Origin: Clostridia bacterium
GTDB lineage: Bacteria; Bacillota; Clostridia; Christensenellales; UBA1242
Length of the DNA stretch: 64,000 bases
Assembly (NCBI GenBank): GCA_017537515.1
Contig: JAFYKO010000170.1
Location: 1,487 to 65,486, forward strand
Direction: 5' to 3'
Shown: piece by piece, positions 1-21,742 of the stretch
Layout: each line of letters begins with the position of its first letter
Position numbering within the stretch: the stretch's first letter is position 1
Translations under genes and position numbers: made by a program
Notes under the pieces: generated by a model
Seen by the model: the letters and a program-made list of their open reading frames with translations, nothing else
Told to the model about the DNA's origin: nothing
The model's database searches: none

Positions 1-954
1 TGGCAGGTTGTTTTCAAAGTCCTTGCGATACTCAACGGGCACCTGGATAACTCGCCCCTGGTAATCGTCAAGTTCTGCGTCGCTTGTAATAACTTTCGGC
101 TGTTCAATGTCGGACCCGATAAAGACGGGGAACGTCGCCCCGCTATAAATCCCCTTGTGTGCCTGGACTTCCCATATCGCAGGTTCAAAGATTGCCACTT
201 TCGGGTTGTTGCGTTCTGCGTCAATGTGGCTTTCCAAAAACGACGTGGATTCGTTTCGGGAAGACACCACCCACATACGGCAGGGGACTTCGCCACCCTT
301 TGTCATAAAACGGGAGAACATACGACGACGAATGCTGTTATAGTTCTGCACCGCCTGGTCCGCAACTGCATTTTGGAAGTTGGCTTCGTCAATGATTGCC
401 CCTATAACTGCCTTACCCAAAGAGTGACGCATACGGGAACCATAGGCGATACCGACGTGGTGGGGGAACATTTCTTCGTCAATTCGGTCGCCCTTGCCTG
501 GAAGCAACTTGGAGCGGAAATAGGGGGAGCAGCCAATCACGTCAATAAGTTGGTCCGCAAGCACGGCACCCGCCAGGTCCATCGTAGCCGTAATGAGCGT
601 AATCACGATAGGTGTGGTCGGAATTAGTTTGAACTTCTTATGCGGGTCTTTTAGAAGCGTGACCCTGTAAAGGTCATAAAGGACCCCGATAATGGACACC
701 GTGGACTTACCCGCACCGATACACCCCGTAATGCAGACTTCAATGAACGGGCTGTAAAGCGGGTTCGGGAACAACTGCTTCAACTTTTCAAGCCAATAGG
801 GATAGACACGACCCTCGCCATAGATAGCACCGATATAGTGCGGGTCGTTAATGAACGTTTCAATGTCAACAGGAACGGATTCGTAGCCTTCGGCTATCGC
901 AGCAGCCTTATACAAGTCTGCGGTGCTTAATCCCGCAAGTCCATTTTCAGCCAT
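1..954 (-). CDS. terL: terminase large subunit, N-terminal ATPase part (3' end runs off window)
   Basis: Minus-strand ORF open to the window edge (absent from the ORF track). My translation: MAENGLAGLSTADLYKAAAIAEGYESVPVD...CITGCIGAGKSTVS (Walker A)...GAIIDEANF (Walker B-like). ATG at 952-954, preceded by AAAGGAAG. Confidence 0.85.
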   Translation of the reverse strand, partial: MAENGLAGLSTADLYKAAAIAEGYESVPVDIETFINDPHYIGAIYGEGRVYPYWLEKLKQLFPNPLYSPFIEVCITGCIGAGKSTVSIIGVLYDLYRVTLLKDPHKKFKLIPTTPIVITLITATMDLAGAVLADQLIDVIGCSPYFRSKLLPGKGDRIDEEMFPHHVGIAYGSRMRHSLGKAVIGAIIDEANFQNAVADQAVQNYNSIRRRMFSRFMTKGGEVPCRMWVVSSRNESTSFLESHIDAERNNPKVAIFEPAIWEVQAHKGIYSGATFPVFIGSDIEQPKVITSDAELDDYQGRVIQVPVEYRKDFENNLP

Positions 955-1153
955 AGACGTAAACTTCCTTTTACACACAAGGGTAGTTGGTGTTTGCGTG
1001 GCTGTCGCTCTTGTAGGGAAATATAACAAATAATCTGTTGCATCGTCGTTGCCATTTGACTCACGCATACGAATTTCAGTGATAGTCACTTCACGACAAC
1101 CTACAAACCTACCCCACCCACCCTATTCATACTCCGAAGCATTCGTGTAATTC

Positions 1154-2466: not shown

Positions 2467-2563
2467 ACACCAAACTGCGTATGGGGGTCTAATAGAAATA
2501 TCAAAAGCGGGGTTGTATTTTAAGGATATTTTTGTATATTTATTAGTGAACACGGGTGAAAGT

Positions 2564-3775
2564 ATGTGTGTAATAACTTATAATGCAGAACTCCGATTCA
2601 AGGACAAGGCAGACCTAGACTATTGGTCTAGTCTTCTTGATACGGCTAGAATTGCATATAACGAATGTGCCAACATACTTGATTCCAATAAGATACACCT
2701 GGACTTGAAATCAGTCCACAATGCCGTGTATTACATATTGAGAGAAAATTTCCCAACAATCCCTTCACAGGGTATTATCAAGATATACAAGGAATGTATT
2801 TCTGCATTCCGTTCAATCAACTCCAACGGGCATATAGAACACAAGATACTTGAAAAGAAGAATTGGTCTATGCGGTTGGACAAACGGTTGTATTCTAAAT
2901 TAAGTGTAGATAGTATATTGCTGTGTTCCGAAAAATCCAACCGTAGGGCTGTTGCAGAAATAATTAAGTTTCCAAAACTTGTGGAACTGTTCAAGAAATA
3001 CCCTACACAAGACCCGCTTATCTTCAAGCGTGACGACAAGTTCTACCTATCCATACCGTTCAATGCTCCCGAAATACCTATACAGAGCGAAAACTGCATA
3101 GGTGTGGATTTGGGCGAACGTAGGTTTGCTGTAACGTCCGATGGCATTATGTTCAACGACAAGGAATACAATGCCCGTAGGCGTAAATTACGCTACTTAA
3201 AAAGGTGCTTGCAGAAGAAGGGCACTAAATCCGCTAGAAAGCACAAATTAAAGTTGTCCGTAAAGGAACGGAATCAATCTACGGATATGTGCTACAAGAT
3301 GGCTAACGCCATTATCGGCAGCACCTATGCAAGCATTATTGTTCTTGAAGATTTAAGCAACATTAAGCAGAAAACTTCAAAAACAAAAGAAGGTTTTAAG
3401 AAAAAGAATCATAATCGTAGAATCGGGCAAGTCCCGTTCTACAAGTTCAAGCAAATCTTGTCATACAAGGCACTACTCAATGGAAAAAGAGTAGAAACAG
3501 TTTCTCCGTTTATGACAAGCCAAACTGACTGCACGACAGGCAAGAAGGACGGAACCCGTAAGAACCGCAGATTCTATTGCAAAAACGGGACTGTCCTGGA
3601 TGCCGATTGGAACGGTGCAATCAATATCGCTCAAAAGAGCAAACATCCTTTCTCGTTAAAGATACCCCTTGATGGAGCATTGAGAACCTGGAAGGCAGGG
3701 CGTGAGTCAACCGCCCAATCGTATGTAAGACTTCCTATGGAAACACAGGAAGCATTACAAACTCACTGTCTTTAG
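2564..3775 (+). CDS. tnpB: TnpB-like RNA-guided endonuclease (RuvC-like, OrfB_IS605 type)
   Basis: RuvC triad motifs are present: CIGVDLGERRFAV (D), SIIVLEDLSNIK (E) and VLDADWNGAINIAQKS (D). The Zn-finger position reads TSQTDCTTG...RFYCKNG, i.e. CxxG twice instead of CxxC. The likely start is the ATG at 2564 (MCVITYNAELRF), not the TTG at 2513. Confidence 0.85.
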   Translation: MCVITYNAELRFKDKADLDYWSSLLDTARIAYNECANILDSNKIHLDLKSVHNAVYYILRENFPTIPSQGIIKIYKECISAFRSINSNGHIEHKILEKKNWSMRLDKRLYSKLSVDSILLCSEKSNRRAVAEIIKFPKLVELFKKYPTQDPLIFKRDDKFYLSIPFNAPEIPIQSENCIGVDLGERRFAVTSDGIMFNDKEYNARRRKLRYLKRCLQKKGTKSARKHKLKLSVKERNQSTDMCYKMANAIIGSTYASIIVLEDLSNIKQKTSKTKEGFKKKNHNRRIGQVPFYKFKQILSYKALLNGKRVETVSPFMTSQTDCTTGKKDGTRKNRRFYCKNGTVLDADWNGAINIAQKSKHPFSLKIPLDGALRTWKAGRESTAQSYVRLPMETQEALQTHCL

Positions 3776-4971: not shown

Positions 4972-5006
4972 ACCTATAATCTAACAAATTATCTGCAATC
5001 GGTCAA
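4972..5006 (-). promoter_or_regulatory. sigma-70-type promoter TTGACC-17-TAGATT abutting the start codon
   Basis: Reverse complement: TTGACC (5001-5006), a 17-nt spacer ending AATTTGT, TAGATT (4978-4983), then ATAGGT and the ATG at 4971. Confidence 0.55.
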
Positions 5007-5064
5007 TAGCAAAAGACACCCGCCCTTGCGGGCGGGAGCCTTACTATGCTTCTCAACAAGAGAA

Positions 5065-7548
5065 TTACTTTTGCTTATACACCTTGACGGTGAAGCACAG
5101 CCCGCCATAACTGTCAAAGTCGTTATCGCTGCTGAAATAGGCTTCTTCGCCTTCGTCGTCCAGGAGGCAATCGGAATACTTTTCCTGGAACTCCGAAAGA
5201 ATGTTCTGTTCGTGTCCGTCCAGGTCTTCACCGTATTCATTACCGAAATTGTAGGCTTCCCAAAGCCACTTCGGAACGATGATTGTGTCAATCAATTCCA
5301 GGCGACCCTCGGATTTCTTGGATTCGGATTTCTTGGATTTCTTGCTTTCGTTGGCGTAGCCGTTTCTGTCTTGACGGGCGATTAGCCTTGCAGTTTCATA
5401 CGGGAGCGATTCGCCCTCAACGTAAGCGTCATTTATGGTGTCGCTGTGTTTGTCGGCTAGTTTGGTTGCCCCGTCTTCGCCATAATGGAATGACACCACA
5501 AGTTCGGAAATAACGTCGCTGCGGTAATTGTCAAGGCTAGACGCTTCGGACAATGCGATTTTTTCCATTTCGGCTTTATTGAACAGGCGTTCGGACGTTT
5601 TCTTCGGCAGCAGTTTGGCTTCTTTGGCTACATAGTTCTTGAAATCGGAATACTCACGCTGCATATAGGCAATAGCGTTTTTCTTGGCTTCGTCTTCGCT
5701 GCCTGCGTAGGTAATGACGTTGGTGAATTGGGGTTCGCCCTCAAATTCAAATTCCACCTTTACCTGCCACGGGCTGTCGGCTCCGTTGGCTTCGGACTTC
5801 TTGGATTCGCCCGCAACCTTTACGATTTTCGGGGGCAATACGCACCTACCTAGATTTTTTACCTTGTCCTTGATAGTAGGCGGGATAGTCCTGGTTCGCT
5901 TTAAGCCAATCTTGTTAAGTTTGGCAGTCAGTTCGTTGCTTGCAGCACCCTCGTTAAGCCACACGTTGTAAATTTCGTCGTAGTCAACGTCAAGCATTTT
6001 CGCAAGTTGGCTAAACAGGCGTTCACGAATAAGGGAGTCGCCTACACCAATGTAGGTGTAAACGTCGTCGCCACGCAGCAAGGTTTGAAGAACGCCCTTG
6101 AACGTTCCGTTGAGCCTGTCGCCCAGGTCGTCGTCCTTGTAAGCACCCATATACCAATCCTTGATAGGTGCGTCAAAGGGTCCGTTGGCTTCGGACTGCT
6201 TGGATTCGTCCTTGTTGTAGCCACAGAACGCTGCGACTTCCTTTGCACCGTCTTCAACGGGTTTTCCCTGGTAGAACATAGCGTCCAACTTTTCCATCCA
6301 ACCGACGTTAAGACGGCAGGTGTCCTTGTCGTTGAAGTCCATACCATACTTGGATTTGAGCAAGGACTTTACGTCCTTGATATACTTGTCAAATTCGTCA
6401 GCGGACTTGCTTTCCTGTTTGCTATACTGCTTCATACGCTTCAAATGCTCCTCTGCGTCTTTCTTCTTTGCGAACGACGCAAGAATGCGGTTGTCTTCGT
6501 GGGAGCGAATGACCCAGGGTGCGTCTTCGCCCTTGGAATTTTTGTGACCTTTTTCGTAGCCCAACTTTTCGTCAGTGGGTCCCTTGGATTCGTCCTTCTT
6601 GCCCGTAATTTCGCCACGGACAAAGAGGACTTTTTCTTTAAGCGACAGTTCCTTGTCGTCAAGAAGTTCCTGCATTTCCTGGGTGTGAGAATCCAGGTAA
6701 TTCTTCACTTCGTCTTCGTCAAGGTCAAACTGCTTCACAAGTTTTTCTTCAAGGGCTTCCAGGAAACCCTTCAAGGACATAGCCTCGTCCTTGTGTGCGG
6801 AAATGCCGAGGGATTCCATCGGGATTTCCGTCTTGTCGTTATCCTTGACACCTACCAATTTAAGGTTTGTAGCACCGTGCTTCTGTGCATCCTCAAGGGT
6901 GCCCTGTGCGTCAACGATGCCGTTGGTAGTCTTGGAACGGTCGTTGCCGTTGAGGGTATAACTTGCGATGAAGAAGTCATACTGCGACGGGTCAAACTTT
7001 GTTTCGTGAAGTTTAATAGTCAGTTTGTGCTGCATACTTTCACCCCTTGAATTAAACATATTGTTTTCTATGAACGACACAAGTGCTGTTGCATCGTCGC
7101 TGTGAAGGTCAAATTCTTCGGACGGTCTGCGTTCAAGCCCATACCCTGGGTAGAACCCGTGTATAACAAAGCCGTCTTCTTCCTCAATGATAGCCAGGAC
7201 ACGGAAAATGAACGCAGCCCTGCGGGGGCAGCGTATCGTTTCTTTGACCCTAACGCAGACACCGTTCGGAAGTTCAAGTGTGCTTCCGTAGCGGAGGCAA
7301 TCTACGTTGTATTCAGCGGATTCGTTCTTGCCCGCCTGCATAGCGTTGAATCGTGCCAACTTGTGAATGTGACGCTTGCCCGCAAAGGACTTAATCCACC
7401 CATTGAGTTCTTTTGTTCGCTTACGCCTTGTCAGTGGATTGTTCCAGGTATGCTCCGCACGGGCAGACTGAATGAAGCCTGTTGCCTTGTGGCTGTCCTT
7501 GAACCTGTCAAGCAGCGATTTCTTTTTTAGGAACGCTTTATGGGGCAT
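5065..7548 (-). CDS. large modular protein (827 aa) with repeated ESKKSEANG linkers and an internal (L/I)KIxLHE tag
   Basis: Continuous ORF. Linker peptides: ESKQSEANG (aa 448-456), ESKKSEANG (aa 581-589) and ESKKSKKSESKKSEG (aa 734-748). An internal SD-like GGGGTGA plus ATG (7033-7035) precedes MQHKLTIKLHE. Confidence 0.7.
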   Translation of the reverse strand: MPHKAFLKKKSLLDRFKDSHKATGFIQSARAEHTWNNPLTRRKRTKELNGWIKSFAGKRHIHKLARFNAMQAGKNESAEYNVDCLRYGSTLELPNGVCVRVKETIRCPRRAAFIFRVLAIIEEEDGFVIHGFYPGYGLERRPSEEFDLHSDDATALVSFIENNMFNSRGESMQHKLTIKLHETKFDPSQYDFFIASYTLNGNDRSKTTNGIVDAQGTLEDAQKHGATNLKLVGVKDNDKTEIPMESLGISAHKDEAMSLKGFLEALEEKLVKQFDLDEDEVKNYLDSHTQEMQELLDDKELSLKEKVLFVRGEITGKKDESKGPTDEKLGYEKGHKNSKGEDAPWVIRSHEDNRILASFAKKKDAEEHLKRMKQYSKQESKSADEFDKYIKDVKSLLKSKYGMDFNDKDTCRLNVGWMEKLDAMFYQGKPVEDGAKEVAAFCGYNKDESKQSEANGPFDAPIKDWYMGAYKDDDLGDRLNGTFKGVLQTLLRGDDVYTYIGVGDSLIRERLFSQLAKMLDVDYDEIYNVWLNEGAASNELTAKLNKIGLKRTRTIPPTIKDKVKNLGRCVLPPKIVKVAGESKKSEANGADSPWQVKVEFEFEGEPQFTNVITYAGSEDEAKKNAIAYMQREYSDFKNYVAKEAKLLPKKTSERLFNKAEMEKIALSEASSLDNYRSDVISELVVSFHYGEDGATKLADKHSDTINDAYVEGESLPYETARLIARQDRNGYANESKKSKKSESKKSEGRLELIDTIIVPKWLWEAYNFGNEYGEDLDGHEQNILSEFQEKYSDCLLDDEGEEAYFSSDNDFDSYGGLCFTVKVYKQK
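5782..5808 (-). repeat. 27-nt intragenic repeat encoding ESKKSEANG (copy 2)
   Basis: TCCGTTGGCTTCGGACTTCTTGGATTC matches 6181-6207 at 26 of 27 positions. Confidence 0.85.
6181..6207 (-). repeat. 27-nt intragenic repeat encoding ESKQSEANG (copy 1)
   Basis: TCCGTTGGCTTCGGACTGCTTGGATTC matches 5782-5808 at 26 of 27 positions. Confidence 0.85.
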
Positions 7549-7555
7549 TGTAGAA

Positions 7556-7753
7556 TTATTCCATTTGGTCGCACTTGTTGTAATATAGATAAATCACCAG
7601 GCGGGCAAATTCTTCGTTGTTCAAACTGCCCGTGTCCGCTACGAAACCGTCCCACCAACCTGCGTCAATGTGTTCTTGAATTTTATCCGCAAGGGCTTTA
7701 ATGTCCTTGTTCTTGATACATTCTTCCCAACGTTCATTTCTTGAAAGATTCAA
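7556..7753 (-). CDS. hypothetical protein (65 aa), TTG start
   Basis: Good coding appearance. There is no in-frame ATG, so the start is uncertain. Confidence 0.45.
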   Translation of the reverse strand: MNLSRNERWEECIKNKDIKALADKIQEHIDAGWWDGFVADTGSLNNEEFARLVIYLYYNKCDQME

Positions 7754-7800
7754 TTTTCTTTTGCATAGAACAGTTGAATTTTTTCATACGTCATTCTCCC

Positions 7801-9159
7801 TTAAAGGTCAGTCATACCCTTCTTTGCGATTTCAATGCCTGCAACGCCCGTCTTCTTAACGCCCGTGTCGGTCTGTGGCATAACAGCACGGCTAGGGGCG
7901 TTCTTAATGGGTTTGTTGGACTTCTTCATCAATCCCGCATTACCGATGATGGCGTTTTCAATGTCGTCCTTGTCAATTTCGGAGTTGTAAAAATCCTGGT
8001 AGGCAGAAACCATACCGTCCTGGATATTCTTTTCAAGGTATTCACGGAGTTGGTCGGACGACCAATCAAACATATTCATACCAGGTGCCACTGTGCTTTG
8101 CGGAACTTCGCCATCGTTGGCGATAGCGATTGCACCCTGGAAGTCACGCAGCATATCTGCGGGGTCCTGGGCGGTATCGCCTGCGGAGTTCTTGAACACA
8201 AGACTGTCAATTTCGCAGTTCGGGTTCAACAGGAACACCTGGGACCACCTGTGGTGCCCGTCCACAATGTAATACGTTCCGTTGTAGTCATAGACTACCA
8301 ACGGCAGGTTCACGGTCACGGGACCGCCATCAAGAATCTGCTTCACCTGTTCGGGGTTCTTACCGCTAACCTGGTAGGAAAGCGACTTGCCCACGTCAAT
8401 TTCGTTTTGAGTCGGGTGAAGGTCCTTCGCCTTGATGTTCATAGTGGTGGTGTCCATCTTTTCAGCGTATTCACCATCACCGAAGCCCTTTTCAAGCAGG
8501 GCAAGTTGTTCGTCCGTCAAGCCATCCAAAGCGTTCACAAGACTGCCCATATCCGACTTGGATTTAAGGTCCTTAACTTCCTTGTCAAATTCCTGGTCGC
8601 CCGTTTCTTCGTAAATGCCGTCCAGGGCTTCGTTGTAGCCCTTCTTGTATGACAGGAACGCTGCACGGTTCGGGAACGATTCCTGGGTCTTCATAGGGGC
8701 GTAGTTGCGTCCGTCACGATTACCCTGGGAGTAATAGGCTTCGCCTTTGGATTCCGTAGGTGCCGACGGCTTGTTGTCAAGAATGCAGGACGTAAGCGTT
8801 TCAAGTTCTGTGTCAGTCGGGAACTCCAACTTCTTGCCGTTGTCAAATTCCATACGGAGCAGGTCTGCATCGGAGTCATACCACATTTTGCCGAAATCTT
8901 TGTATTCCTTGTATATCGGATTGGTAATTTCGCTGATTACAAGTGTCCCGCCAATGCTCCAACCGCAAGAAATAAGGTGTTCGGGGTGGTCATACTTGAA
9001 ATACAACCACACAGGACGGGTAAGGTCGTTGCTGTAAGCAGGGTCCTTGTTCCATATTTCACGTCCGTCCTTGTCCTTTACACGCTTCCCAAGCCACTGC
9101 TTGTCAGCATCAGAAACTGATTCACGCTTCTTGTTATGAAGATTGATTTTGAAACTCAT
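7801..9159 (-). CDS. protein with a C-terminal ParB/Srx-like nuclease domain (452 aa), N-terminal MSFKINLHN tag variant
   Basis: KDLHPTQNEIDV...YYIVDGHHRWSQVF matches the ParB-N/sulfiredoxin-fold signature (DGxHR). Confidence 0.6.
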   Translation of the reverse strand: MSFKINLHNKKRESVSDADKQWLGKRVKDKDGREIWNKDPAYSNDLTRPVWLYFKYDHPEHLISCGWSIGGTLVISEITNPIYKEYKDFGKMWYDSDADLLRMEFDNGKKLEFPTDTELETLTSCILDNKPSAPTESKGEAYYSQGNRDGRNYAPMKTQESFPNRAAFLSYKKGYNEALDGIYEETGDQEFDKEVKDLKSKSDMGSLVNALDGLTDEQLALLEKGFGDGEYAEKMDTTTMNIKAKDLHPTQNEIDVGKSLSYQVSGKNPEQVKQILDGGPVTVNLPLVVYDYNGTYYIVDGHHRWSQVFLLNPNCEIDSLVFKNSAGDTAQDPADMLRDFQGAIAIANDGEVPQSTVAPGMNMFDWSSDQLREYLEKNIQDGMVSAYQDFYNSEIDKDDIENAIIGNAGLMKKSNKPIKNAPSRAVMPQTDTGVKKTGVAGIEIAKKGMTDL

Positions 9160-9176
9160 AATAAAGTCCTTGCTTA

Positions 9177-9581
9177 TTAGTAAACACTCTTGAACTTTGC
9201 CAATGCTTCTTCAACGTCAGCAGCAAACGCAGCGGAGCAATTACCAGGGAGTGCTGCCAACACAATGTCTTTCCAGGAATCAATCGGGCTGTCGTAGTTG
9301 GAACCTATTTCTTCTGCAATAGCACCCAAAGCGTTGTTTGCGTCGTTAAGTTCGTCGCAAATGCCGTTAATGCGGTCCAACTTCTTTAACATTTCTTCTT
9401 TTTCGGGTCCGTCGTTAAGGCGGTCAATGGCTCCTACAATACTGTCGCTTGCGTCTTCGTCAAGAATATCACGAAGACCGCTGTAAGCCATATCTACCTT
9501 TTCGGCAGCGTCTGTGATAATGTCTTCCAGGTAGGAATTTGTGTTGTTCTTTGCTTTGCTAGGTATTAAGTCCCGTATCAT
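9177..9581 (-). CDS. hypothetical acidic protein (134 aa)
   Basis: Minus-arm ORF with AAGGA upstream. Strongly D/E-rich. Confidence 0.6.
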   Translation of the reverse strand: MIRDLIPSKAKNNTNSYLEDIITDAAEKVDMAYSGLRDILDEDASDSIVGAIDRLNDGPEKEEMLKKLDRINGICDELNDANNALGAIAEEIGSNYDSPIDSWKDIVLAALPGNCSAAFAADVEEALAKFKSVY

Positions 9582-9638
9582 AGAAGTAATCCTTATTAAA
9601 TGGTTTTGATTATACTCAATTAAAATAACAATTCCTGT

Positions 9639-10223
9639 TTACACGTGCAACACCAGGTCCAGGTAAATGAGCGATTCTTCGTTCTCTTTCTTGGCGTTCG
9701 GGTTTCGCAAAGTCCTAATGTTCTTGACAAAATACGACAAGTCTTCGTCCCCATAATGCACAAGCAACTTGGAATGTAAAACAATATCACCTGGGCAGTA
9801 GTCCCTATGACCGCTTGTATTTTTGAGCGTGTAAGCCGTGTTTTCTTCGTCCAGGAACATTTCAGTCCCACGGATGACGGGCTGTTCCTGCGGGTCCAGG
9901 AATGCGATACGGGCTATAAAGTCGGGTTCTTCCTTGTAGCGGTATTCGTGGTCCTTTTCGTTATACACACTACCCGTCCTGTCTTCCTGGTTGTAGGCAC
10001 CTTCCAGGGGCATACCACTGTAAATGGAGCGGTCGCCACGGTCCACAATCGGGAAGTTTTCAGTCCCCTCGGAAATGACGGGCAGGTAAACTTCGGCATT
10101 GTAGCCTACGATTGTGATACTATGCTTCAAGGCGACATACACCTGTGTGTCGGCTAGACGGGTAACTACGTTAAGCGAATGCCTGTCTTTCAAAAAGTTT
10201 ATGTCGTCAAGATTTTTAGGCAT
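9639..10223 (-). CDS. hypothetical protein (194 aa)
   Basis: Minus-arm ORF with AAGGAC upstream, packed 3 nt from the upstream gene's stop. Confidence 0.65.
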   Translation of the reverse strand: MPKNLDDINFLKDRHSLNVVTRLADTQVYVALKHSITIVGYNAEVYLPVISEGTENFPIVDRGDRSIYSGMPLEGAYNQEDRTGSVYNEKDHEYRYKEEPDFIARIAFLDPQEQPVIRGTEMFLDEENTAYTLKNTSGHRDYCPGDIVLHSKLLVHYGDEDLSYFVKNIRTLRNPNAKKENEESLIYLDLVLHV

Positions 10224-10226
10224 AGG

Positions 10227-10700
10227 TTAGTCCTTGATTAAGCGTATGTTATAGAATGTAAAATCCCTAACTATATCAAGTTCTGCTGAATTTTTAGTTA
10301 TCACTATGCTGTCGGCATAGTCATCGTCAATTGGTTTTCCACGTAAAAAAGCGACATCCCGTTCTTCTTCCCAATTCACCACTCTATTCCTGTGGGGGTC
10401 AAATGAAGCAAACCCGTGAGGAACGACATTAAACCCATTTTGGTCCTTTAAGGATTTAACGTGTTCTAGTAATTTTTTAATTTCTGTTGAGTCGGGAAGG
10501 TGCCATCCGTTTATAGACTTCACTATTCTATCGGCAGCGTCTAAATTATAGAAATATAAATGGGCATACTGCCTAAATATACCTGCACCCCCATCGTCAA
10601 TTTCAAGATTTTCAGCCATCCACACCTGGTCGCCAATCTTGACGGTCTTGGGGTTGAACGCTTCATTCAATCTTTCGTGAACTCTAATTTTAAGTGCCAT
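10227..10700 (-). CDS. FISUMP (Fibrobacter succinogenes major paralogous) domain protein (157 aa) with N-terminal MALKIRVHE tag
   Basis: TVKIGDQVWMAENL...NGWHLPDSTEIKKLLEHV are the hallmark motifs of TIGR02145. The start is taken at the internal ATG at 10698-10700, not the track start at 10808. Confidence 0.7.
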   Translation of the reverse strand: MALKIRVHERLNEAFNPKTVKIGDQVWMAENLEIDDGGAGIFRQYAHLYFYNLDAADRIVKSINGWHLPDSTEIKKLLEHVKSLKDQNGFNVVPHGFASFDPHRNRVVNWEEERDVAFLRGKPIDDDYADSIVITKNSAELDIVRDFTFYNIRLIKD

Positions 10701-10935
10701 ACGCTGCCTCTTGCTCGTTAGTTCTAATGACTTTGCTTTTCCAGGACGGACCCATTCGTTCTGCCTGTTCCGTGCCCGAACAATAACTGCACACGGGTTT
10801 TCCACCAATGTAGCGGTATGTCTTTCGGGCGTGGCAGATGCAGCAAAGTTCTTTTGTCCCTGCTGTATTACGCTTGCGGTGCAACGGGGCTAGTCCGTCA
10901 ATGGTTATCGGTTTTGGGTAGTCATCAATGTTCAA
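10690..10935 (-). CDS. small zinc-ribbon protein (81 aa), TTG start
   Basis: CCICHARKTYRYIGGKPVCSYC (CxxC...CxxC). Overlaps the next start by 11 nt. Confidence 0.5.
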   Translation of the reverse strand: MNIDDYPKPITIDGLAPLHRKRNTAGTKELCCICHARKTYRYIGGKPVCSYCSGTEQAERMGPSWKSKVIRTNEQEAAYGT

Positions 10936-10938
10936 GGG

Positions 10939-11259
10939 TTATTCCTTACTGTCGCAGTAGCGGTAGAAGATTGATTGTAGTTTCTTGTAAAGGTCAAAGT
11001 CGCAGTCACGCTCAAATTCGGAGTCGGCTTCCCAGGTCCGAACGTTGAACTTGCCACCATTGTAAACCAATTCGTAAGCACAGAAGAAACTGCCGACACC
11101 AGGGACGGACACAACCAACTGCTGCTGTCCGTAATTGGTGCTTTCGCTGCGGGCGTTCAACTTGTAGTTGCTGCCCAGGGCTTGCTTGAACTCCGTCATC
11201 ATAGCGTCCAAGTCAACGGCACCCTTCTTTTCGTGAAGTTTGATTGCTAATCGGCTCAT
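10939..11259 (-). CDS. hypothetical protein (106 aa) with N-terminal MSRLAIKLHE tag
   Basis: The start is placed at the ATG at 11257-11259, which overlaps the upstream stop as ATGA. The track start at 11277 would overlap by 22 nt. Confidence 0.6.
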   Translation of the reverse strand: MSRLAIKLHEKKGAVDLDAMMTEFKQALGSNYKLNARSESTNYGQQQLVVSVPGVGSFFCAYELVYNGGKFNVRTWEADSEFERDCDFDLYKKLQSIFYRYCDSKE

Positions 11260-12239
11260 TCTACCCAATGCCTCCATACGACATTAGCAAGGGTTCCGTC
11301 CTTGTCTTCATAGCACCAAAGAACGGGGTCATAGCCTAACAAATCAAGTTCCGTAGCAATGTCAACATTAGACATACCCTGTTTCTGTAATTCAGCGATT
11401 TTGTCCTTTTTGTCTTCGCCCAAATGAGTAAGCACCCATTCAACGGTTACAATCGCTGTATCGTGCAGATAGTCGTTGACTACTATGGGGTCGTTGGGGT
11501 TATACTTGTTTTCCGTATCGTATTCGTCGTGCATATCTTTGAGCATATCTTTGATAGCCCTTTTATGCAACGGAACATTGTGTATAACCCCGTCGTCGGT
11601 AATCTTTTCGTGAACACGGATTTTCAAAGAAGTCTTTTTAACGGATTCCCACTTTTGAATGTAGTCAATGCTCAAGGGTGCGGTCTTGTCAATCTTGTCC
11701 CCGTTGCCGTTTCTTTCAGCGTAAGCCACCGCCTGCTTCCAAGCGTCGGCTTCGTCTTCGGCACCCGAAATCTTCATAGTGTAGGGCTTTCCATCCTTTG
11801 TCTTGAACCTTACGACCCATTCCGAATAAAGGCGGTTCAAGTTCTTGCGAGCGTCTTCTTTGTCGCCTTCAACGGAGCCGTTCAAAATTGAACGTGCCAT
11901 ACCCGCTGACATTTTAGATTCGTGGACGGTAATCTTCATTTTCTTCATTTTGCTTTCTCCAATGGCATACAGGCTATACAAACGGGAACCCGCAGTGTAA
12001 TACTTTCTGCCCCATACCCTTACGCCCGAACCGACGTAAGTGGAACTGTCATTCAAAACCACAACGCCCTGTTTGGTGTCGTCGTCAATGTCCAAAGCCC
12101 TAATGGGTTTAGTGAACGTAAAGGCTTTCTGCCACGCAGTCATAGGACCAAACGGCTTCTTTGACCACTGCAACTCGCAGGGGTTCTTCGGATTTATCCG
12201 ATAGTGAATGTCGTATTTTGGAACGTAGATTGACTGCAT
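11256..12239 (-). CDS. three-module protein (327 aa) with two internal (L/I)KIxVHE junctions
   Basis: The junctions are KKMKITVHES (aa 101-107) and SLKIRVHEK (aa 205-211). Start and stop overlap the neighbouring genes. Confidence 0.65.
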   Translation of the reverse strand: MQSIYVPKYDIHYRINPKNPCELQWSKKPFGPMTAWQKAFTFTKPIRALDIDDDTKQGVVVLNDSSTYVGSGVRVWGRKYYTAGSRLYSLYAIGESKMKKMKITVHESKMSAGMARSILNGSVEGDKEDARKNLNRLYSEWVVRFKTKDGKPYTMKISGAEDEADAWKQAVAYAERNGNGDKIDKTAPLSIDYIQKWESVKKTSLKIRVHEKITDDGVIHNVPLHKRAIKDMLKDMHDEYDTENKYNPNDPIVVNDYLHDTAIVTVEWVLTHLGEDKKDKIAELQKQGMSNVDIATELDLLGYDPVLWCYEDKDGTLANVVWRHWVE

Positions 12240-12748
12240 TAGAACGTAAACCCTGTATATACTTCTTTATCGCCTTTAAAGCAATAGCTGTCGCCAATGT
12301 CGCTGAATTTAATGGCACAGTAGGTTCTGTCGGACCTGTCGTAGCCGTCAAAGACCCACACCTGGGATTCCTTCGGGTATTCAATCGGTTTAAGGGTAAA
12401 GAACTCGTCCTTCTTCAAGTTCTTAATCTTCTTGACGGTCGGTTCCCACGCAGCGTCTTCGTTCTTGTGTTCAACAATCCCACGCAGTTCATTGGCAATT
12501 TTACCCGTGGCATCCAAGAAAGAAATGTCGTTGTGCGGGAAGAAATCCGAAACGATTTTGTATGCAGGGAACTTGCCACGGGTGTCTTCTACATATATAG
12601 TATCACCATCAACGGTGGTGTTGACAAAAGGACCCCAACCATCTCGAAGGTAGTAATCCTGTTCGGAAGCATCGTCGGGGCTACTGCATTTAACAGCGAT
12701 TACAGGGACTACTAATTCTTTTTCGTGTAGTTTGATTTTAAGAGCCAT
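12239..12748 (-). CDS. hypothetical protein (169 aa) with N-terminal MALKIKLHE tag
   Basis: ORF with a TGTATATT -10 at 12779-12786 (minus strand) and AAAGG upstream. Its stop overlaps the next ATG. Confidence 0.65.
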   Translation of the reverse strand: MALKIKLHEKELVVPVIAVKCSSPDDASEQDYYLRDGWGPFVNTTVDGDTIYVEDTRGKFPAYKIVSDFFPHNDISFLDATGKIANELRGIVEHKNEDAAWEPTVKKIKNLKKDEFFTLKPIEYPKESQVWVFDGYDRSDRTYCAIKFSDIGDSYCFKGDKEVYTGFTF

Positions 12749-12798
12749 AGAAAACCTTTGGTTTGTTATTCAGTGTGAAATATACATTATTCTCACAA

Positions 12799-13008
12799 CT
12801 AACGGAAAAGCCATTCTTCAAATCGGGCGTTGCTTTCGTCTTCAAGCGATTGCAGGATTTCCAGGTCCGCAATACGCAGGGCACCACAGCGGGCATCCAC
12901 CGCTGTCCTGGCGACGGCATAGAGAGTGTTTATGTAGAGTTTCTGCTTGTCTTCGGGCAGCATAGCGAGCATACCCGAAATATCGGTCTGTGGTTCTGTC
13001 ATACCCAT
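12799..13008 (-). CDS. hypothetical protein (69 aa; probably starts at the second ATG at 13002 as a leaderless mRNA)
   Basis: The -10 TATATT (13009-13014, minus strand) abuts the ATG at 13008. The second ATG (13000-13002) sits 6 nt after the -10. Confidence 0.5.
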   Translation of the reverse strand: MGMTEPQTDISGMLAMLPEDKQKLYINTLYAVARTAVDARCGALRIADLEILQSLEDESNARFEEWLFR

Positions 13009-15960: not shown

Positions 15961-16203
15961 ATGGCAAAAGTAGATATTGAAAATGTCAAAGCCCGTATTG
16001 ACCGCCTCAAGAACGAACGTTCCGAAGCCGAGGGCAAGAAAAAGGCTATTGAAGAAACGTGGCAGCGTGACTACAACGTTTCCACTCTTGAAGAAGCCGA
16101 AGAACTCAAAGACAAGATTGAAAAGGAACTAGAAGACAATCGTGCTGCCCAGGAAGAATATCTTGACGCTGCCGACAAACTTCTTACCGAAGCGGGTGTG
16201 TAA
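15961..16203 (+). CDS. coiled-coil protein (80 aa), candidate Rad50/SbcC coiled-coil fragment
   Basis: Heptad-like, E/K-rich sequence. TAATG overlap with the following ATPase C-half. Confidence 0.5.
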   Translation: MAKVDIENVKARIDRLKNERSEAEGKKKAIEETWQRDYNVSTLEEAEELKDKIEKELEDNRAAQEEYLDAADKLLTEAGV

Positions 16204-16784
16204 TGTCGCTTTCCCTGGAAGATTTTCACAAGAAAGTCGTGTCGGGTCGTGCCCAACTTGACATAGCGGAAAAGTCTTTGAAGACCAACCGAAAGAAGTT
16301 GGACGACTTGCAGTCCGACTGCGATAACCAAAAGAAAGCCCTGGCTCTTTTGCAGGACGTTGCGTCCAAGACGCAGGACCAACTTAAAGACGCTGTTCAA
16401 AAGTCCGTGCAGAACTGCCTGGACCTTTTGTTCCCTGGCTACGAATTTACGGTGAACTTTGTCCCGAAGCGTGGCAAGGTGGACGCTGAATTTCGTATCT
16501 GCAAGGGTGTCGCAGAATTGGACCCGTTGGATTCTTCGGGTGGTGGTCTTGTGGATTCCGTGAGTTTCGCCCTGCGTGTCGGTTGTCTGCGTCTTGCAGG
16601 CAAGCGTCCGTTCCTGTTGCTTGACGAACCCTTCGGGCACCTGCGTGATGGCGAAGTCGTCAAGCCCCGCAAGGAACTTGGACAGGTCATTTCCACGCTT
16701 GTGGACAAGATAGGCGTTCAAGTGCTTATGGTGGGCGACGTGGCGGGAACCGATATTAACGCTGACAAAGAGTATTCATTTTAA
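16203..16784 (+). CDS. Rad50/SbcC-like ATPase, C-terminal half only (coiled coil + signature motif + Walker B)
   Basis: DSSGGGLVDSVSFALRV (signature motif, LSGG-like) followed by RPFLLLDEPFGHLRD (Walker B/D-loop). No Walker A in this ORF. Confidence 0.65.
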   Translation: MSLSLEDFHKKVVSGRAQLDIAEKSLKTNRKKLDDLQSDCDNQKKALALLQDVASKTQDQLKDAVQKSVQNCLDLLFPGYEFTVNFVPKRGKVDAEFRICKGVAELDPLDSSGGGLVDSVSFALRVGCLRLAGKRPFLLLDEPFGHLRDGEVVKPRKELGQVISTLVDKIGVQVLMVGDVAGTDINADKEYSF

Positions 16785-16834
16785 CGGCATTTTTGTTATT
16801 TTAGCCATACCACTTTAAGGTAAGGAAAACAGAA

Positions 16835-17038
16835 ATGGAAAACGTAATCAATGAATATAACGTAACCTGGTATGACCGTGAATCCCACGAAAACTTCACT
16901 GCGACGTTCGGGGACTTCAAGGGTGCGTCGGAACACGCAAACTTTATAAAGAAGAACAACCTGGGCGACGACGTGTTTATTACCGAAGTCAAGAAACACT
17001 TGCGGGTTATGCCCGAAAGCGAATGGTTAGATGGCTGA
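16835..17038 (+). CDS. hypothetical protein (67 aa)
   Basis: Plus-arm ORF with AAGGAAAACAGAA upstream. Confidence 0.5.
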   Translation: MENVINEYNVTWYDRESHENFTATFGDFKGASEHANFIKKNNLGDDVFITEVKKHLRVMPESEWLDG

Positions 17039-17291
17039 AATAACTTATGAAAAATCGTTTACAGTAGTTTTACAGGTGTCTGCCGAAAGCAGCACCTTGT
17101 CTAAAACGGAACTGCTGAAACTTGTAAAACCGCAGGTTGACGCAGGACTTGAACAGGACGCAGAAGCGTTTAATTTTGTAGCAGGCTGCTGCACAGAAGA
17201 TGGGCAGACCTACTCTTATAGAGTATCACTTAAACCGAGGAAAAATAATGGCTACCAAAAAACAGAAAACCGCAAAAGACGAAAAGCCTAA
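17031..17291 (+). CDS. hypothetical protein (86 aa)
   Basis: Plus-arm ORF. The 3' end overlaps the next gene by 44 nt, so its end is uncertain. Confidence 0.45.
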   Translation: MAEITYEKSFTVVLQVSAESSTLSKTELLKLVKPQVDAGLEQDAEAFNFVAGCCTEDGQTYSYRVSLKPRKNNGYQKTENRKRRKA

Positions 17292-20434: not shown

Positions 20435-21742
20435 ATGATAACGAAGATTAAATTGCATAACTTTCAGTGCCACAAGGACCTGGAATTGGACCTTGGGCGT
20501 TCCACCGTATTGCAGGGTGGTTCCAACCACGGAAAGACAGCCGTCCTACGTGCATTCTATTGGGTCCTGTTCAATGATGCTCCGCACGACTTTGTGTCCT
20601 ATTGGGCACAGAAGAAAACCAAAAAGGGCTTCACTTTCAAGGACGACGAATACACGTCCGTCACTATCGTTGTGGACGGGCACGTTGTAGAACGCAAGCG
20701 TTCCAACACGTTCAACGGCTATATCGTTGACGATACCATTTACGAAGCACTCCGAACAGACGTGCCCGAAGCGGTCACGAAGTTATTCAACCTGGCAGAC
20801 GCTTCGGTGCAGAAGCAGTTTGACGCTCCGTTCCTGCTCGCCACGACACCTGGCGAAGCGTCTAAATACTTGAACGAACTTGCGGGGCTTGAATGCGTGG
20901 ACGGCATTCTAACGCTCGCAAAGCGTAAGGTTGCCGACACGTCCGACCTGGTAAACACGGCAAAGGAAACCGTTGAAAGCCTGGAAAAGTCCGTCGGGTC
21001 TTTCAGTTGGGTAAAGGAAGCCGAAGCCCTGTATGAAAAGGCACAGGCTACGCAGCCGAAGATTGAAGAACTTACCCGTAAGTTGGAAGCACTCAACCGC
21101 ACCATTTCCGACTACAAGGCTATCAAGAACTATCCCGAAATCCCCGATTGGCTTGAAAACGGGGACAAGTCCGCAGTGATTAAGGGCTTGGAAAAGGAAC
21201 TTGAAATCTGCAACAACTACGTGGGCACCTGCCGTGTTCTCTCACGTGTGAACCCCGCCCTGGAAAAGTTGAACGCCCTGGTGTTCCCAAAACCGCCCAA
21301 GCATACCGAAAAGGAACTTGAAGCCCTGTCGGGTTCTATTGAAAAATACGGTAAAGTCGTGTCCAACTATCGCAGGTGCAGGTCCGTATTGAACGCCCTG
21401 GACGACTTGCAGGAACCGAAGCCGTGCAAGTGGGAGGGTCGCTTGCGTCCGCTTGTGCAGTCTATCCGAAACTACGAAGAAGTCACGGAAATCCTGGGTT
21501 CTGCAAGCACCGCCCTTGACAAGATTTCAAAACTCAAGGCTCCGAAGCCGTGCAAGTGGACCGAAAAGGATTTTGAAACCCTGGTCCGCTCCATACGGAA
21601 TTACAGCAGTGCAAAATCCACGATTTCCGACTGCAACGATTACCTGGACGACGCTTACAGCGATTTGGAGGGTGTAGCCTGCCCCGTCTGCGGTCGCCCG
21701 CTTACCCGACGTGACATTTTGCTGTATGTAAGCAAAATATAA
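20435..21742 (+). CDS. Rad50/SbcC-like ATPase, N-terminal half (Walker A + coiled coil + terminal CxxC zinc hook)
   Basis: MITKIKLHNFQCHKDLELDLGRSTVLQGGSNHGKTAVL (SMC/Rad50 N-terminus with P-loop), followed by long helical repeats. The ORF ends in GVACPVCGRPL. Confidence 0.7.
   Translation: MITKIKLHNFQCHKDLELDLGRSTVLQGGSNHGKTAVLRAFYWVLFNDAPHDFVSYWAQKKTKKGFTFKDDEYTSVTIVVDGHVVERKRSNTFNGYIVDDTIYEALRTDVPEAVTKLFNLADASVQKQFDAPFLLATTPGEASKYLNELAGLECVDGILTLAKRKVADTSDLVNTAKETVESLEKSVGSFSWVKEAEALYEKAQATQPKIEELTRKLEALNRTISDYKAIKNYPEIPDWLENGDKSAVIKGLEKELEICNNYVGTCRVLSRVNPALEKLNALVFPKPPKHTEKELEALSGSIEKYGKVVSNYRRCRSVLNALDDLQEPKPCKWEGRLRPLVQSIRNYEEVTEILGSASTALDKISKLKAPKPCKWTEKDFETLVRSIRNYSSAKSTISDCNDYLDDAYSDLEGVACPVCGRPLTRRDILLYVSKI

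Follow-up and report, generated by a model that had tools for sequence, protein, structure and literature searches.

The window, that is, the whole 64,000-nucleotide stretch analysed here, raises the question of why a run of otherwise unrelated proteins should share one short peptide, which stands at the N-termini of some and inside the chains of others. The original prediction had listed seven copies and interpreted them as a candidate capsid-targeting and protease-cleavage tag of the T4 type. All seven are present where it had placed them, as matches to I-x-[LV]-H-[EN] on the minus strand between 7003 and 12736, four N-terminal and three internal, and all lie in the coding frames of real ORFs. 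The features of the window that bear on the question are as follows.

12239..12748, minus strand: 169-aa gene, N-terminal tag MALKIKLHEK (12719-12748)
11256..12239, minus strand: 327-aa three-module ORF, a conserved N-module (residues 1-95) with cargo modules B and C; junction tags MKKMKITVHE(S) at 11919-11948 and (S)LKIRVHE(K), which has no Met, at 11607-11627
10939..11259, minus strand: 106-aa gene, N-terminal tag MSRLAIKLHEK (11230-11259), overlapping the upstream stop as ATGA
10227..10700, minus strand: 157-aa gene, N-terminal tag MALKIRVHER (10674-10700), FISUMP-like domain from residue 20
9639-10223, minus strand: untagged 194-aa gene, no tag by relaxed patterns
9177-9581, minus strand: untagged 134-aa gene, no tag by relaxed patterns
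7801..9159, minus strand: 452-aa gene, variant tag MSFKINLHNK (9133-9159) with Asn replacing Glu; ParB-like nuclease domain at about residues 236-336
7734..7787, minus strand: orphan 17-codon mini-ORF, MKKFNCSMQKKIESFKK and a stop, a copy of a second shared peptide (class B)
7556-7753, minus strand: untagged 65-aa gene
5065..7548, minus strand: 827-aa fusion ORF, N-part (residues 1 to about 180), internal tag MQHKLTIKLHET (7003-7035) and 645-aa cargo
1..1089, minus strand: large terminase gene (647 aa), 5' portion only, as it runs off the window start; coordinates mapped from L008:11267-13210
20435..21742, plus strand: SbcC/Rad50-type ATPase, N-terminus MITKIKLHNF, with Pfam AAA_23 and AAA_15 matches starting at residues 1-4

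In six-frame translation, KI-x-[LV]-H-[EN] occurs six times, against a mean of 0.06 in 200 shuffles (maximum 2), and I-x-[LV]-H-[EN] nine times against 2.0 expected, with seven of the nine inside a 5.7 kb cluster. The tagged run is real, although the six proteins described as consecutive are not strictly so, since three untagged genes are interspersed among them. The ATG at 11259 and its ATGA overlap were confirmed with the call of the 106-aa gene. Both proposed domain assignments proved weak: the 157-aa protein scores 32.2 bits against Fib_succ_major (cut-off 33.9), and the 452-aa protein matches ParBc_2 at E 7.5e-4 and the ParB-like phrog_1033 at E 3e-6. The cluster does lie upstream of terL, as had been claimed, the terminase gene being downstream of it on the same strand; by tblastn against annotated large terminases, it gave 37% identity over 87% query coverage (E 5e-104). 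A pattern search of the replication part of the window, about 51 kb, found no real tag. The N-terminus of the ATPase at 20435 was rejected as a copy: it forms the usual opening strand of an AAA_23 (SbcC/Rad50-type) domain, in which MITKIKLHNFQCH is kept in relatives as part of the ATPase domain, and the likeness is due to chance.

The source is an uncultured phage of about 215-225 kb with T4-type head genes, namely a gp23-family capsid protein and a gp21-family serine protease. Across related contigs of about 213-225 kb, the tag has the consensus M-S-K-[LM]-K-I-[KR]-[VLI]-H-E, typically MSKMKIKVHE, ten residues. The logo of 140 distinct contexts extends this only by [SKA], and conservation ends abruptly after the Glu. 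The residue pairs following I-x-[VLI] are HE (80), RE (13), KE (8) and SE (3), so that Glu is the constant residue; in distant relatives (46-53% protease identity) hydrophobic-x-E is retained and the His is lost. A DNA pattern scan across IMG/VR recovered the tag repeatedly on contigs of the window's phage family, while matches on other contigs look like chance. Sequence comparison indicates that the tag is conserved, and under selection, at the peptide level.

The tag is portable across unrelated proteins. Single-linkage BLASTP of 64 tagged bodies from the phage family gave 32 families, in agreement with the claim that the sequences after the tag are unrelated. Orthologues with a shortened or swapped tag were found, as were homologues without one. 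The 169-aa protein, in which a variable ferredoxin-like domain and then a conserved 65-aa C-terminal domain follow the tag, has untagged homologues (P0174-P0177). Orthologues of the 106-aa gene begin MNRMTIKLHEK, MTNMKIRVHEK or MSSMKIKVHNI. The H-N variant of the 452-aa ParB-like protein is kept in its orthologues, and the L016 orthologue has MGLTIKIKEN fused straight to the YYS...GN region. The cargo of the 827-aa ORF is a separate gene in relatives, starting MDMPFTIKVHESRFDPSQYDY (L007/L016), MALKIKIKETKFDPSQYDF (L010) or MAKITERFDPSQYDY (L011).

The head module lies outside the window and was read in close relatives and same-strain contigs. Its order is gp21-family prohead protease, tagged small genes, gp23-family capsid protein. 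In six contigs (L072, L073, L046, L054, L067 and L087), a protease of 345-355 aa is directly followed by two to four tagged small genes and then by a scaffold-like gene and the 549-aa capsid gene, with further tagged genes just past these. The protease matches phrog_207 (E 1e-20) and Pfam S77 (E 1.5e-4; one protease matched, at 21.8 bits, below the gathering threshold of 27); many homologues carry precomputed PF03420, and tblastn to gp21 of RB43 and RB16 gave about E 1e-4. With a His/Ser/Asp triad invariant relative to RB43 gp21, the protease is assigned by sequence to the T4 gp21 / Peptidase_S77 family, triad intact. The prohead protease that the original prediction proposed to look for is thus present, beside tagged genes. 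I-A-E occurs at residue 5 of the protease, and its I-S-E-S aligns with I-T-E-S of RB43. The capsid protein scores 42 bits against Pfam Gp23 (cut-off 24.4) and has a conserved [FY]-V-x-E-N, with x variable, at about residue 66; the propeptide removed from T4 gp23 is 65 residues long. By NCBI locus tags, a protease (P0001) and the 327-aa and 169-aa proteins of the window belong to the same MAG (IKT27_03805, IKT27_05520 and IKT27_05525), the longest contig of each being 224,454 bp, and both gene sets occur in sample ERZ28019117. The window cluster and the head module are about 55 kb apart, and the tag is confined to this module and to the clusters near terL.

We consider it fairly probable that the tag is a portable propeptide that directs proteins to the prohead, and that it corresponds in function to the ten-residue capsid-targeting sequence (CTS) found on T4 internal proteins. 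The T4-like tag first proposed has gained strong and independent, though circumstantial, support from the gp21-family protease, the head-module context and the absence of a common fold. From the gene context and the analogy with T4 we infer targeting, cleavage after the Glu, presence in the virion, ejection and an effector function for the tagged proteins. They would be expressed late, from the head module and from a leftward unit that continues into terL, and the amphipathic K-I-K-V stretch would dock them on the assembling scaffold or core. Once the shell had assembled, the gp21-like protease would cut after the Glu of [VLI]-x-E and free the mature cargo in the head, to be delivered into the host later, together with the DNA. 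The same cut would fall at the junction tags of multi-module ORFs, or the downstream module would also be translated alone from the retained ribosome-binding site and ATG.

Several observations count against the CTS reading: the P2 His is conserved far above the needs of a T4-type L/I-x-E site, the commonest P3 is Val rather than Leu or Ile, and the ParB-like protein has its conserved H-N. The same holds for the dissimilarity to the T4 CTS sequence, the second shared peptide, the translation starts kept at internal tags, the distance of about 55 kb between cluster and head module, and the sub-threshold S77 score. In T4, Asp replacing the Glu blocks processing, and targeting without cleavage has been reported.

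The T4 CTS reads MKTYQEFIAE, to which the phage tag has no sequence similarity. Of its ten residues, those at positions 8 and 10 determine processing; the internal proteins that carry it are otherwise diverse, and known gp21 sites include ITE-6, LTE-619 and LIE-9 (PMC9026906, PMC3012670, PMC5694885). Positions 8 and 10 of the common form of the phage tag are likewise hydrophobic and Glu, respectively. As with the gp21-removed CTS of IPI, IPII, IPIII and Alt, an N-terminal peptide of about ten residues stands on unrelated, fast-evolving proteins, and tagged loci show rapid gene turnover between relatives (PMC9026906, PMC3012670). The phage also resembles T4 in its gp21-family protease and gp23-family capsid protein, and in that tagged genes adjoin protease and core genes. 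Nevertheless, there are clear differences. In the phage tag, P2 is almost always His and P3 most often Val. The repertoire far exceeds that of T4, with at least 32 body families and at least 11 tagged genes within 55 kb of a single genome. Tags are found within ORFs too, at junctions behind the conserved 95-aa N-module, and there is a second, interchangeable peptide (CSMQKKIES). Beyond its head genes the phage is not a T-even relative, its terL resembling those of Rhizobium RHph_TM30-like and Thermus phiLo-like phages.

In the giant phages phiKZ, SPN3US and 201phi2-1, gp21-related S80 proteases remove long N-terminal propeptides from head and ejection proteins. Processing after Glu affects many internal head proteins, at several sites per protein; paralogues have identical N-terminal residues, and the propeptides have been proposed to direct proteins to the prohead (PMC5694885, PMC10052503). 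The 95-aa N-module with its tag resembles such a long propeptide ending in a cleavage site. However, the giant-phage motif is A/S/G-x-E, whereas the present tag, like T4 sites, has V, L or I at P3; the giant-phage propeptides are mostly at least 100 residues long and not one common decapeptide; and the present protease is closer to the T4-type S77.

The second peptide, CSMQKK(I/K)ES, heads head-module genes and takes the place of the class A tag at the N-module junction of P0121, P0128, P0130, P0134 and P0135. It occupies the same positions as the class A tag but its P3 is not hydrophobic, which implies either a broader protease specificity or a different action of class B. The class B mini-ORF at 7734..7787 is out of frame (+1) with the 65-aa ORF.

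Could the tag serve only as a processing site, at which the prohead protease, or another one, cuts polyproteins and removes leaders while packaging depends on other features? No residue is more conserved than the Glu, and hydrophobic-x-E survives the loss of the His. Among 80 N-module homologues, in which a tag at about residues 100-107 and variable cargo follow the N-module, about 60 have junction tags, some without Met, and ESKKSEA-type linkers likewise mark junctions; in the 827-aa ORF cargo, ESK(K/Q)SEA linkers lie at 6187-6207, 5788-5808 and 5305-5349. Yet 9-10 residues are conserved, far beyond a three-residue site, and most copies are N-terminal, where removing ten residues would have little evident point unless the leader acted first. 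The H-N variant, probably uncuttable, is conserved as well, and we regard processing as the sole role as unlikely. Nor is junction cleavage needed to explain the internal tags, because they keep a ribosome-binding site and ATG: the first-junction tags retain an in-frame Shine-Dalgarno-like site and ATG in 7/7 cases, so that nested translation starts are possible. At one junction, GGAGAAAGCAAA-ATG encodes I-G-E-S-K-M, and in the 827-aa ORF AGGGGTGA lies upstream of the internal tag. Nested starts are therefore a live alternative to processing of the multi-module ORFs, while the internal copies without Met favour a function within the chain. T4 gp21 itself has an internal start at Met45 (gp21s) (PMC9026906). 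Like the nested head-assembly genes lambda C/Nu3 and T4 gp21/gp21s, these ORFs carry an in-frame ribosome-binding site and ATG inside a longer gene; unlike them, the nested product would open with a common tag, the downstream module is hypervariable and some internal tags have no Met.

A tag that stays on the mature protein as an uncleaved amphipathic beta-strand could instead dock to a common partner, for example the scaffold, the portal, the inner capsid surface, a chaperone or the ejection apparatus. The alternating hydrophobic and basic residues of [LM]-K-I-K-V are typical of an edge strand, the tag is predicted to be disordered in isolation, H-N, R-E and K-E variants are tolerated, and a similar sequence is a strand in the SbcC-like ATPase. 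We nonetheless consider an uncleaved docking strand improbable: the near-invariant Glu closes the conserved block exactly, a gp21-family protease gene adjoins tagged genes, and T4-type sites are conserved at the termini of the capsid protein and protease.

A third possibility places the function in the nucleic acid, as an A-rich translation-start leader, a DNA cassette boundary for module swapping or both; internal copies would then be fossil or nested starts. Shine-Dalgarno-like sites precede 61/66 tagged starts as well as the first-junction copies, and the Lys codons of the tag favour AAA, whereas the genome prefers AAG. Modules are gained or lost exactly at tags: in L014 and P0138-P0144, module B forms a gene of its own with an N-terminal tag, L004 lacks it, and relatives have the modules as separate genes. 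CAC-GAA encodes His-Glu in 36/40 copies against about 0.65 expected from codon usage, a mild excess among copies that are not independent. The claim that codons differ between copies therefore holds for the third positions but has to allow for this slight over-use. Against such a role, the codons for I, K, V and L differ freely at their third positions without a change of residue, the window's replication genes, which equally need efficient translation, have no tag, some internal copies have no Met, and the restriction to protease-linked head-module and terL-proximal clusters is left unexplained. Recombination at tags may also be a consequence and not the function. We judge this explanation very unlikely.

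Finally, AlphaFold2 bears on whether the heptapeptide simply opens a fold common to all these proteins, which the original prediction had named as a possible refutation of its own reading. In the 169-aa model, the pLDDT of residues 1-9 is below 50, and the folded part begins at residue 14; in the 327-aa model, both junction tags lie in linkers with pLDDT below 50. None of these tags has secondary structure, and the adjacent domains score 80-92. Because the tag is predicted to be disordered and some homologues of the same domains lack it, it is not the first strand of a shared fold. A common first strand or chance resemblance, which the KIKLHN strand opening the ATPase might suggest, is already contradicted by these models, the 32 body families, the untagged homologues and the shuffling result, and is scarcely credible.

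The prohead-targeting propeptide is thus the reading that we prefer. If these proteins are indeed packaged, the cluster at 5065-12748 would be a fast-evolving set of packaged effectors.

Nine ORFs lie on the minus strand between 5065 and 12748, upstream of the large terminase gene (terL), and the motif I-x-[LV]-H-[EN] occurs among them seven times, each time in the frame of a real ORF, so that the shared peptide of the original prediction (hereafter the tag; commonest form MSKMKIKVHE) is real. Four copies stand within the first 11 residues of the 169-, 106-, 157- and 452-aa genes; the 327-aa ORF has two further copies and the 827-aa ORF one, all of them internal. When the 64 kb window was translated in six frames, the tighter pattern KI-x-[LV]-H-[EN] was observed six times compared with 0.06 in shuffles, and the one copy that lies elsewhere than in the cluster is at the head of the ORF at 20435. 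The gene starts proposed at the outset coincide with independent gene calls on the source contig, a 163-kb ENA metagenome contig in which the window takes up 93259-157258, but the description of six consecutive tagged proteins was inexact, as the 194-, 134- and 65-aa genes of the run carry no tag. In the 452-aa protein the residue at P1 of the tag, the position before the putative cut, is Asn instead of Glu. The cluster is transcribed opposite to the plus-strand replication module and into the terminase gene at the window start.

The original prediction had allowed that the peptide might simply be the first strand of a common fold. This does not hold, since the tags are unstructured in AlphaFold2 models, the bodies that follow are unrelated and homologues without a tag exist. 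In the model of the 169-aa protein (19-sequence alignment, mean pLDDT of 81), residues 1-9 have pLDDT below 50 and no secondary structure, and the fold begins at residue 14 with an N-terminal domain of ferredoxin-like fold. In that of the 327-aa protein (54 sequences), a beta-rich N-module (residues 1-80, pLDDT 82-92) and a module B (residues 110-195, pLDDT ~78-88) are predicted, and both tags fall in linkers with pLDDT below 50. Foldseek returned no match in the PDB at E <= 0.001 for either model; the N-module showed a weak likeness to oligomerising two-blade beta-propeller fragments (6r5x, E 0.06). The copy at 20435 belongs to an SbcC/Rad50-type ATPase, of which it is the ordinary first strand, because Pfam AAA_23 and AAA_15 align from residues 1-4 of that ORF; an SMC/Rad50/SbcC-type domain (a strand followed by Walker A, AAA_23) was found there only and in none of the tagged proteins. 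Chance can be excluded as an explanation of the tag, and so can a shared fold.

Tag contexts were gathered from loci of related phages, reached by a DNA pattern scan and by searches with terL, the capsid protein and the 169-aa protein; the counts in relatives cover pieces of ~25-50 kb of these large genomes. The logo of 140 distinct contexts reads M-S-K-[LM]-K-I-[KR]-[VLI]-H-E-[S/K/A]; it ends at residue 10, with no conservation beyond. Behind it, 64 distinct tagged bodies fall into 32 unrelated BLASTP families. Pfam and PHROGs gave only weak FISUMP and ParB-like matches for the cargos. The same cargo is found under differing heads. The 827-aa ORF contains a 645-aa cargo that is elsewhere a separate gene, starting with MDMPFTIKVHESRFDPSQYDY in locus L007, MALKIKIKETKFDPSQYDF in L010 and MAKITERFDPSQYDY in L011, and in the ParB-like protein of locus L016 the head MGLTIKIKEN is joined ~150 residues further in. 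The 169-aa protein ends in a domain that is found elsewhere in tagged proteins with different middles and in proteins that have no tag. This domain (65 aa, residues ~102-169, minus strand 12239-12445) reads KKIKDLKKDEFFTLKPIEYPKESQVW...GDKEVYTGFTF and also occurs in two Microviridae records from pig samples, in proteins annotated as hypothetical; tblastn with the 169-aa protein matched only this domain, in those two records.

The codons for I, K, V and L differ in their third positions among tag copies, and selection therefore acts on the peptide. A nucleotide-level or RNA motif is ruled out by the same variation; only CAC-GAA, present in 36 of 40 copies against ~0.65 expected, is mildly over-used, and these copies are not independent. 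A degenerate DNA pattern scan across IMG/VR returned 38 stretches, of which 15 lie on contigs of this phage family, several with 2-4 copies. An occurrence of the tag beyond this family was considered and rejected: the other 23 stretches are mostly short or internal ORFs and are about the chance number, roughly 27 by our own estimate.

The internal copies were examined in 80 homologues of the 327-aa protein, taken as 90%-identity clusters, which have the following module in common.

11955-12239, minus strand: N-module of the 327-aa ORF (residues 1-95), beta-rich and highly conserved, pLDDT 82-92

The N-module always comes first and ends ...Y-A-I-G-E. In ~60 of the 80 homologues a tag follows at residues 100-107, and then cargo of unrelated sequence and length; ~20 of the 80 have a second, later tag. 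Modules B and C, which complete the 327-aa protein, occur elsewhere as separate genes with N-terminal tags, and locus L004 lacks module B through a gap running exactly from tag to tag; the tags thus bound exchangeable cassettes. The junction DNA GGAGAAAGCAAA-ATG encodes I-G-E-S-K-M and holds an in-frame Shine-Dalgarno-like site and start, a combination present at all seven first-junction tags seen at the DNA level and at 61 of 66 N-terminal tags. The downstream module may accordingly be translated alone as well, from a nested start. None of the 80 homologues has a stop codon after the N-module, and Met is absent from about half of the second-junction tags, including that at 11607-11627 in the window, which argues that the tag also functions within the chain, where it would most simply be a cleavage site.

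A second peptide, (M-x-x-K)-C-S-M-Q-K-K-(I/K)-E-S-(L/F)-x-K-K, is found at the start of several genes that otherwise have nothing in common, most of them lying between the protease and capsid genes of related loci.

L016 2908-3378: gene headed by the second peptide
L016 3391-3969: gene headed by the second peptide
L072 7300-9135: gene headed by the second peptide
L072 12978-14312: gene headed by the second peptide
L087 12016-13089: gene headed by the second peptide
Window 7734-7787, minus strand: 17-codon mini-ORF encoding the second peptide, out of frame (+1) with the 65-aa ORF 7556-7753

In five homologues (P0121, P0128, P0130, P0134 and P0135), this peptide takes the place of the main tag at the N-module junction. 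The mini-ORF may be a frameshifted gene. A further short sequence, E-S-K-(K/Q)-S-E-A, marks three module boundaries of the 827-aa ORF and directly follows many tags of the head module, the protease and capsid gene region (...VHE-x-KKSEA); it may serve either as another processing site or as a flexible linker.

Window 5305-5349, minus strand: ESK(K/Q)SEA at a module boundary
Window 5788-5808, minus strand: ESK(K/Q)SEA at a module boundary
Window 6187-6207, minus strand: ESK(K/Q)SEA at a module boundary
L087 11057-11353: ESK(K/Q)SEA
L087 17221-18798: ESK(K/Q)SEA
L087 18866-19747: ESK(K/Q)SEA

The plus-strand part of the window is a replication module, which besides the first two genes listed below holds a DnaB-like helicase, two clamp-like proteins, a UvsX-like recombinase, a gp32-like protein, SbcCD-like genes and TnpB. 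Several TnpB/IS605-family OrfB genes (Cas12f1-like_TNB domain) are dispersed over the phage genome, and one separates the capsid gene from the next tagged genes.

50176-52869, plus strand: family A DNA polymerase with an N-terminal uracil-DNA-glycosylase-superfamily domain (residues 41-188)
44824-46995, plus strand: SNF2-family helicase with an intein (Pfam Intein_splicing, residues 259-302, just before the SNF2 domain)
2513-3775, plus strand: TnpB/IS605-family OrfB gene
L008 13263-14459: TnpB/IS605-family OrfB gene
L087 15733-16920: TnpB/IS605-family OrfB gene
L059 2780-3982, minus strand: TnpB/IS605-family OrfB gene
L016 20558-21682: possible terL-region oddity
L019 8708-11695: possible terL-region oddity
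L023 10001-12550: possible terL-region oddity

The first of these terL-region features is possibly a terL-like paralogue, ~9 kb downstream of terL, whose N-terminus (...VDIETFIKDPEYLG) resembles VDIETFINDP of terL. In some relatives the terL ORF is far longer (995 aa in L019), which could reflect an intein or other insertion, and in L008, on the source contig, a collagen-like fibre gene (GAT/GDT repeats; 16096-17131), downstream of terL, is broken by a run of N (an assembly gap). Strong Shine-Dalgarno-like sites (AGGAG, GGAGA, GAGG) stand 7-12 nt upstream of most starts in the window and in loci L004-L087. A Bacteroidota host, suspected from a few weak start regions, was dropped, as such sites precede 61 of 66 tagged starts. 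Of the MAG bins into which these phage contigs fall, one bears the name Clostridia and another Bacteroidaceae, and because these names conflict the host assignment is unreliable. The IMG/VR relatives are contigs of 185-216 kb; no close cultured phage was found, and megablast of window positions 5000-13000 against GenBank phages gave no match.

Head genes were sought directly downstream of terL, where an exonuclease, fibres, a glycosyltransferase and replication-type genes were found instead. The pattern scan located two more tag clusters ~55-66 kb beyond terL in 213- and 215-kb genomes. The head module of close relatives starts with a protease of 345-355 aa and continues with two to four small tagged genes (e.g. 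MAKMKIKVHESS, MPKLKIMVHEAK and MALRINIHESKK), genes headed by CSMQKK(I/K)ES, a scaffold-like gene of 165-189 aa, a 549-aa capsid gene, further tagged genes and the tail sheath. The prohead protease that the original prediction expected elsewhere in the genome is thus present, outside the window, as a member of the gp21 family (gp21 being the prohead protease of T4). It matches phrog_207 (head maturation protease) at E 1e-20 and, by tblastn, gp21 of RB43, RB16 and relatives over ~70% of its length. Pfam Peptidase_S77 (PF03420) is precomputed on 14 homologues; of two proteases scanned, one matched it (E 1.5e-4, 21.8 bits, below the cut-off of 27). The catalytic triad is invariant with respect to RB43 gp21 (H88, S143/S144 and D171 in RB43 numbering; motifs GH, VSSR and D-x-V), and a sequence search of the PDB with the protease gave no meaningful match. 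The capsid protein matches Pfam Gp23 above threshold.

We assign the protease to the window's genome because one such protein (P0001, 99% identical to the protease of locus L072) and the 327- and 169-aa proteins of the window bear locus tags of one NCBI MAG (IKT27_*; longest contig 224,454 bp each), and because one ENA sample holds both the protease/head gene set and the window gene set. In that sample the head module runs from the protease through MAKMKICVHEEKKSEA, MALRINLHES, two CSMQKKKES genes, the scaffold-like gene and the capsid gene to TnpB, MSNKKFKIAVKESKKSEA and MTMKINVHENKKSEA.

The capsid-targeting sequence (CTS) of T4 internal proteins is MKTYQEFIAE. Compared with the tag, M1-S-K-M-K-I-K-V8-H-E10, it has the same length and the same layout of positions 8 and 10, with no resemblance by eye beyond this; judged by sequence, the tag is an analogue and not a homologue of the CTS. 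As is asked of a T4-type CTS, a short N-terminal peptide stands on otherwise unrelated proteins (the 140-context logo and 32 families). In T4, the first 10 residues of IPIII form its CTS, in which residues 4 and 7 matter most for targeting and residues 8 and 10 for processing, and Asp at position 10 blocks cutting while targeting is kept; the T-even internal proteins are diverse except for the CTS (PMC9026906, PMC3012670, PMC5694885). Known gp21 sites include ITE-6, LTE-619 and LIE-9 (PMC9026906, PMC3012670, PMC5694885). The end of the tag, [VLI]-[H/R/K]-E, fits such a site (hydrophobic P3, any P2, Glu P1), with Glu in 96% of strict copies, although Val is commonest at P3 in the tag compared with the ITE, LTE and LIE of T4 (PMC5694885, PMC9026906). 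The giant-phage motif (A/S/G)-x-E (phiKZ/SPN3US) does not describe the tag, of which every strict copy has V, L or I at P3.

Following I-x-[VLI] in the relaxed N-terminal pattern are HE (80 counts), RE (13), KE (8), HN (8, four of which are the SbcC-like gene) and SE (3), and near the protease, phages with 46-53% protease identity carry MAMKIRVRES, MTMKIKVNEE, MALIKVREMK and MLRIKLIEKK. What stays constant is therefore Glu together with the hydrophobic P3, and His is lineage-specific. The capsid protein has a conserved [FY]-V-x-E-N at about residue 66 (x = N, A, S or Q) and R-[LIQ]-V-E-[SA] at residue 19; the protease begins M-Q-I-A-E, and its catalytic domain ends in I-S-E-S, aligned with I-T-E-S of RB43. 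These putative sites agree with a T4-like specificity without proving it.

By analogy with T4, the tag probably serves first as the protein's address and is then removed by cleavage after Glu. Among the readings weighed this explains the most, as it covers why the conserved block is so long and stops abruptly at Glu, its N-terminal placement and disorder, the adjacency of a gp21-family protease and gp23-family capsid protein, the variants and the turnover of cassettes. That the tag is a cleavage site only, or a docking element only, is less likely. A role in expression or recombination would leave selection at the peptide level, the copies without Met and the confinement to head and terL-proximal regions unaccounted for.

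Building on addressing followed by cutting, we tentatively propose that two interchangeable address peptides of 10-12 residues (MSKMKIKVHE and CSMQKKIES) might load dozens of unrelated, rapidly shuffled modules, including polyproteins cut or separately initiated at each tag, into the capsid of ~215-225 kb uncultured phages for delivery to the host. To our knowledge, hardly any rule at the sequence level tells which phage proteins are packed in the head and injected, except in T4 and its near relatives. The tag would supply such a packaging rule for an entire family of large uncultured phages; if the proposal is true, sequence alone would suffice to read a phage's full repertoire of injected proteins, and outside the T-even phages the tag would be a ready protein-packaging handle, testable with foreign proteins. 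More than 30 protein families whose functions are not known, including the ParB-like nuclease-domain protein and the 827-aa multi-module protein, would be flagged as candidate injected effectors, where anti-defence proteins are expected. The logic of the T4 CTS (10 residues, hydrophobic residue 8, Glu 10) would have been re-invented, or have diverged past recognition, beside a gp21-family protease, and the tag and protease together would inform how protease specificity and cargo addressing co-evolve. Should the tag have no part in targeting, it would still be a clear portable peptide module at the cassette boundaries of a hypervariable phage locus.
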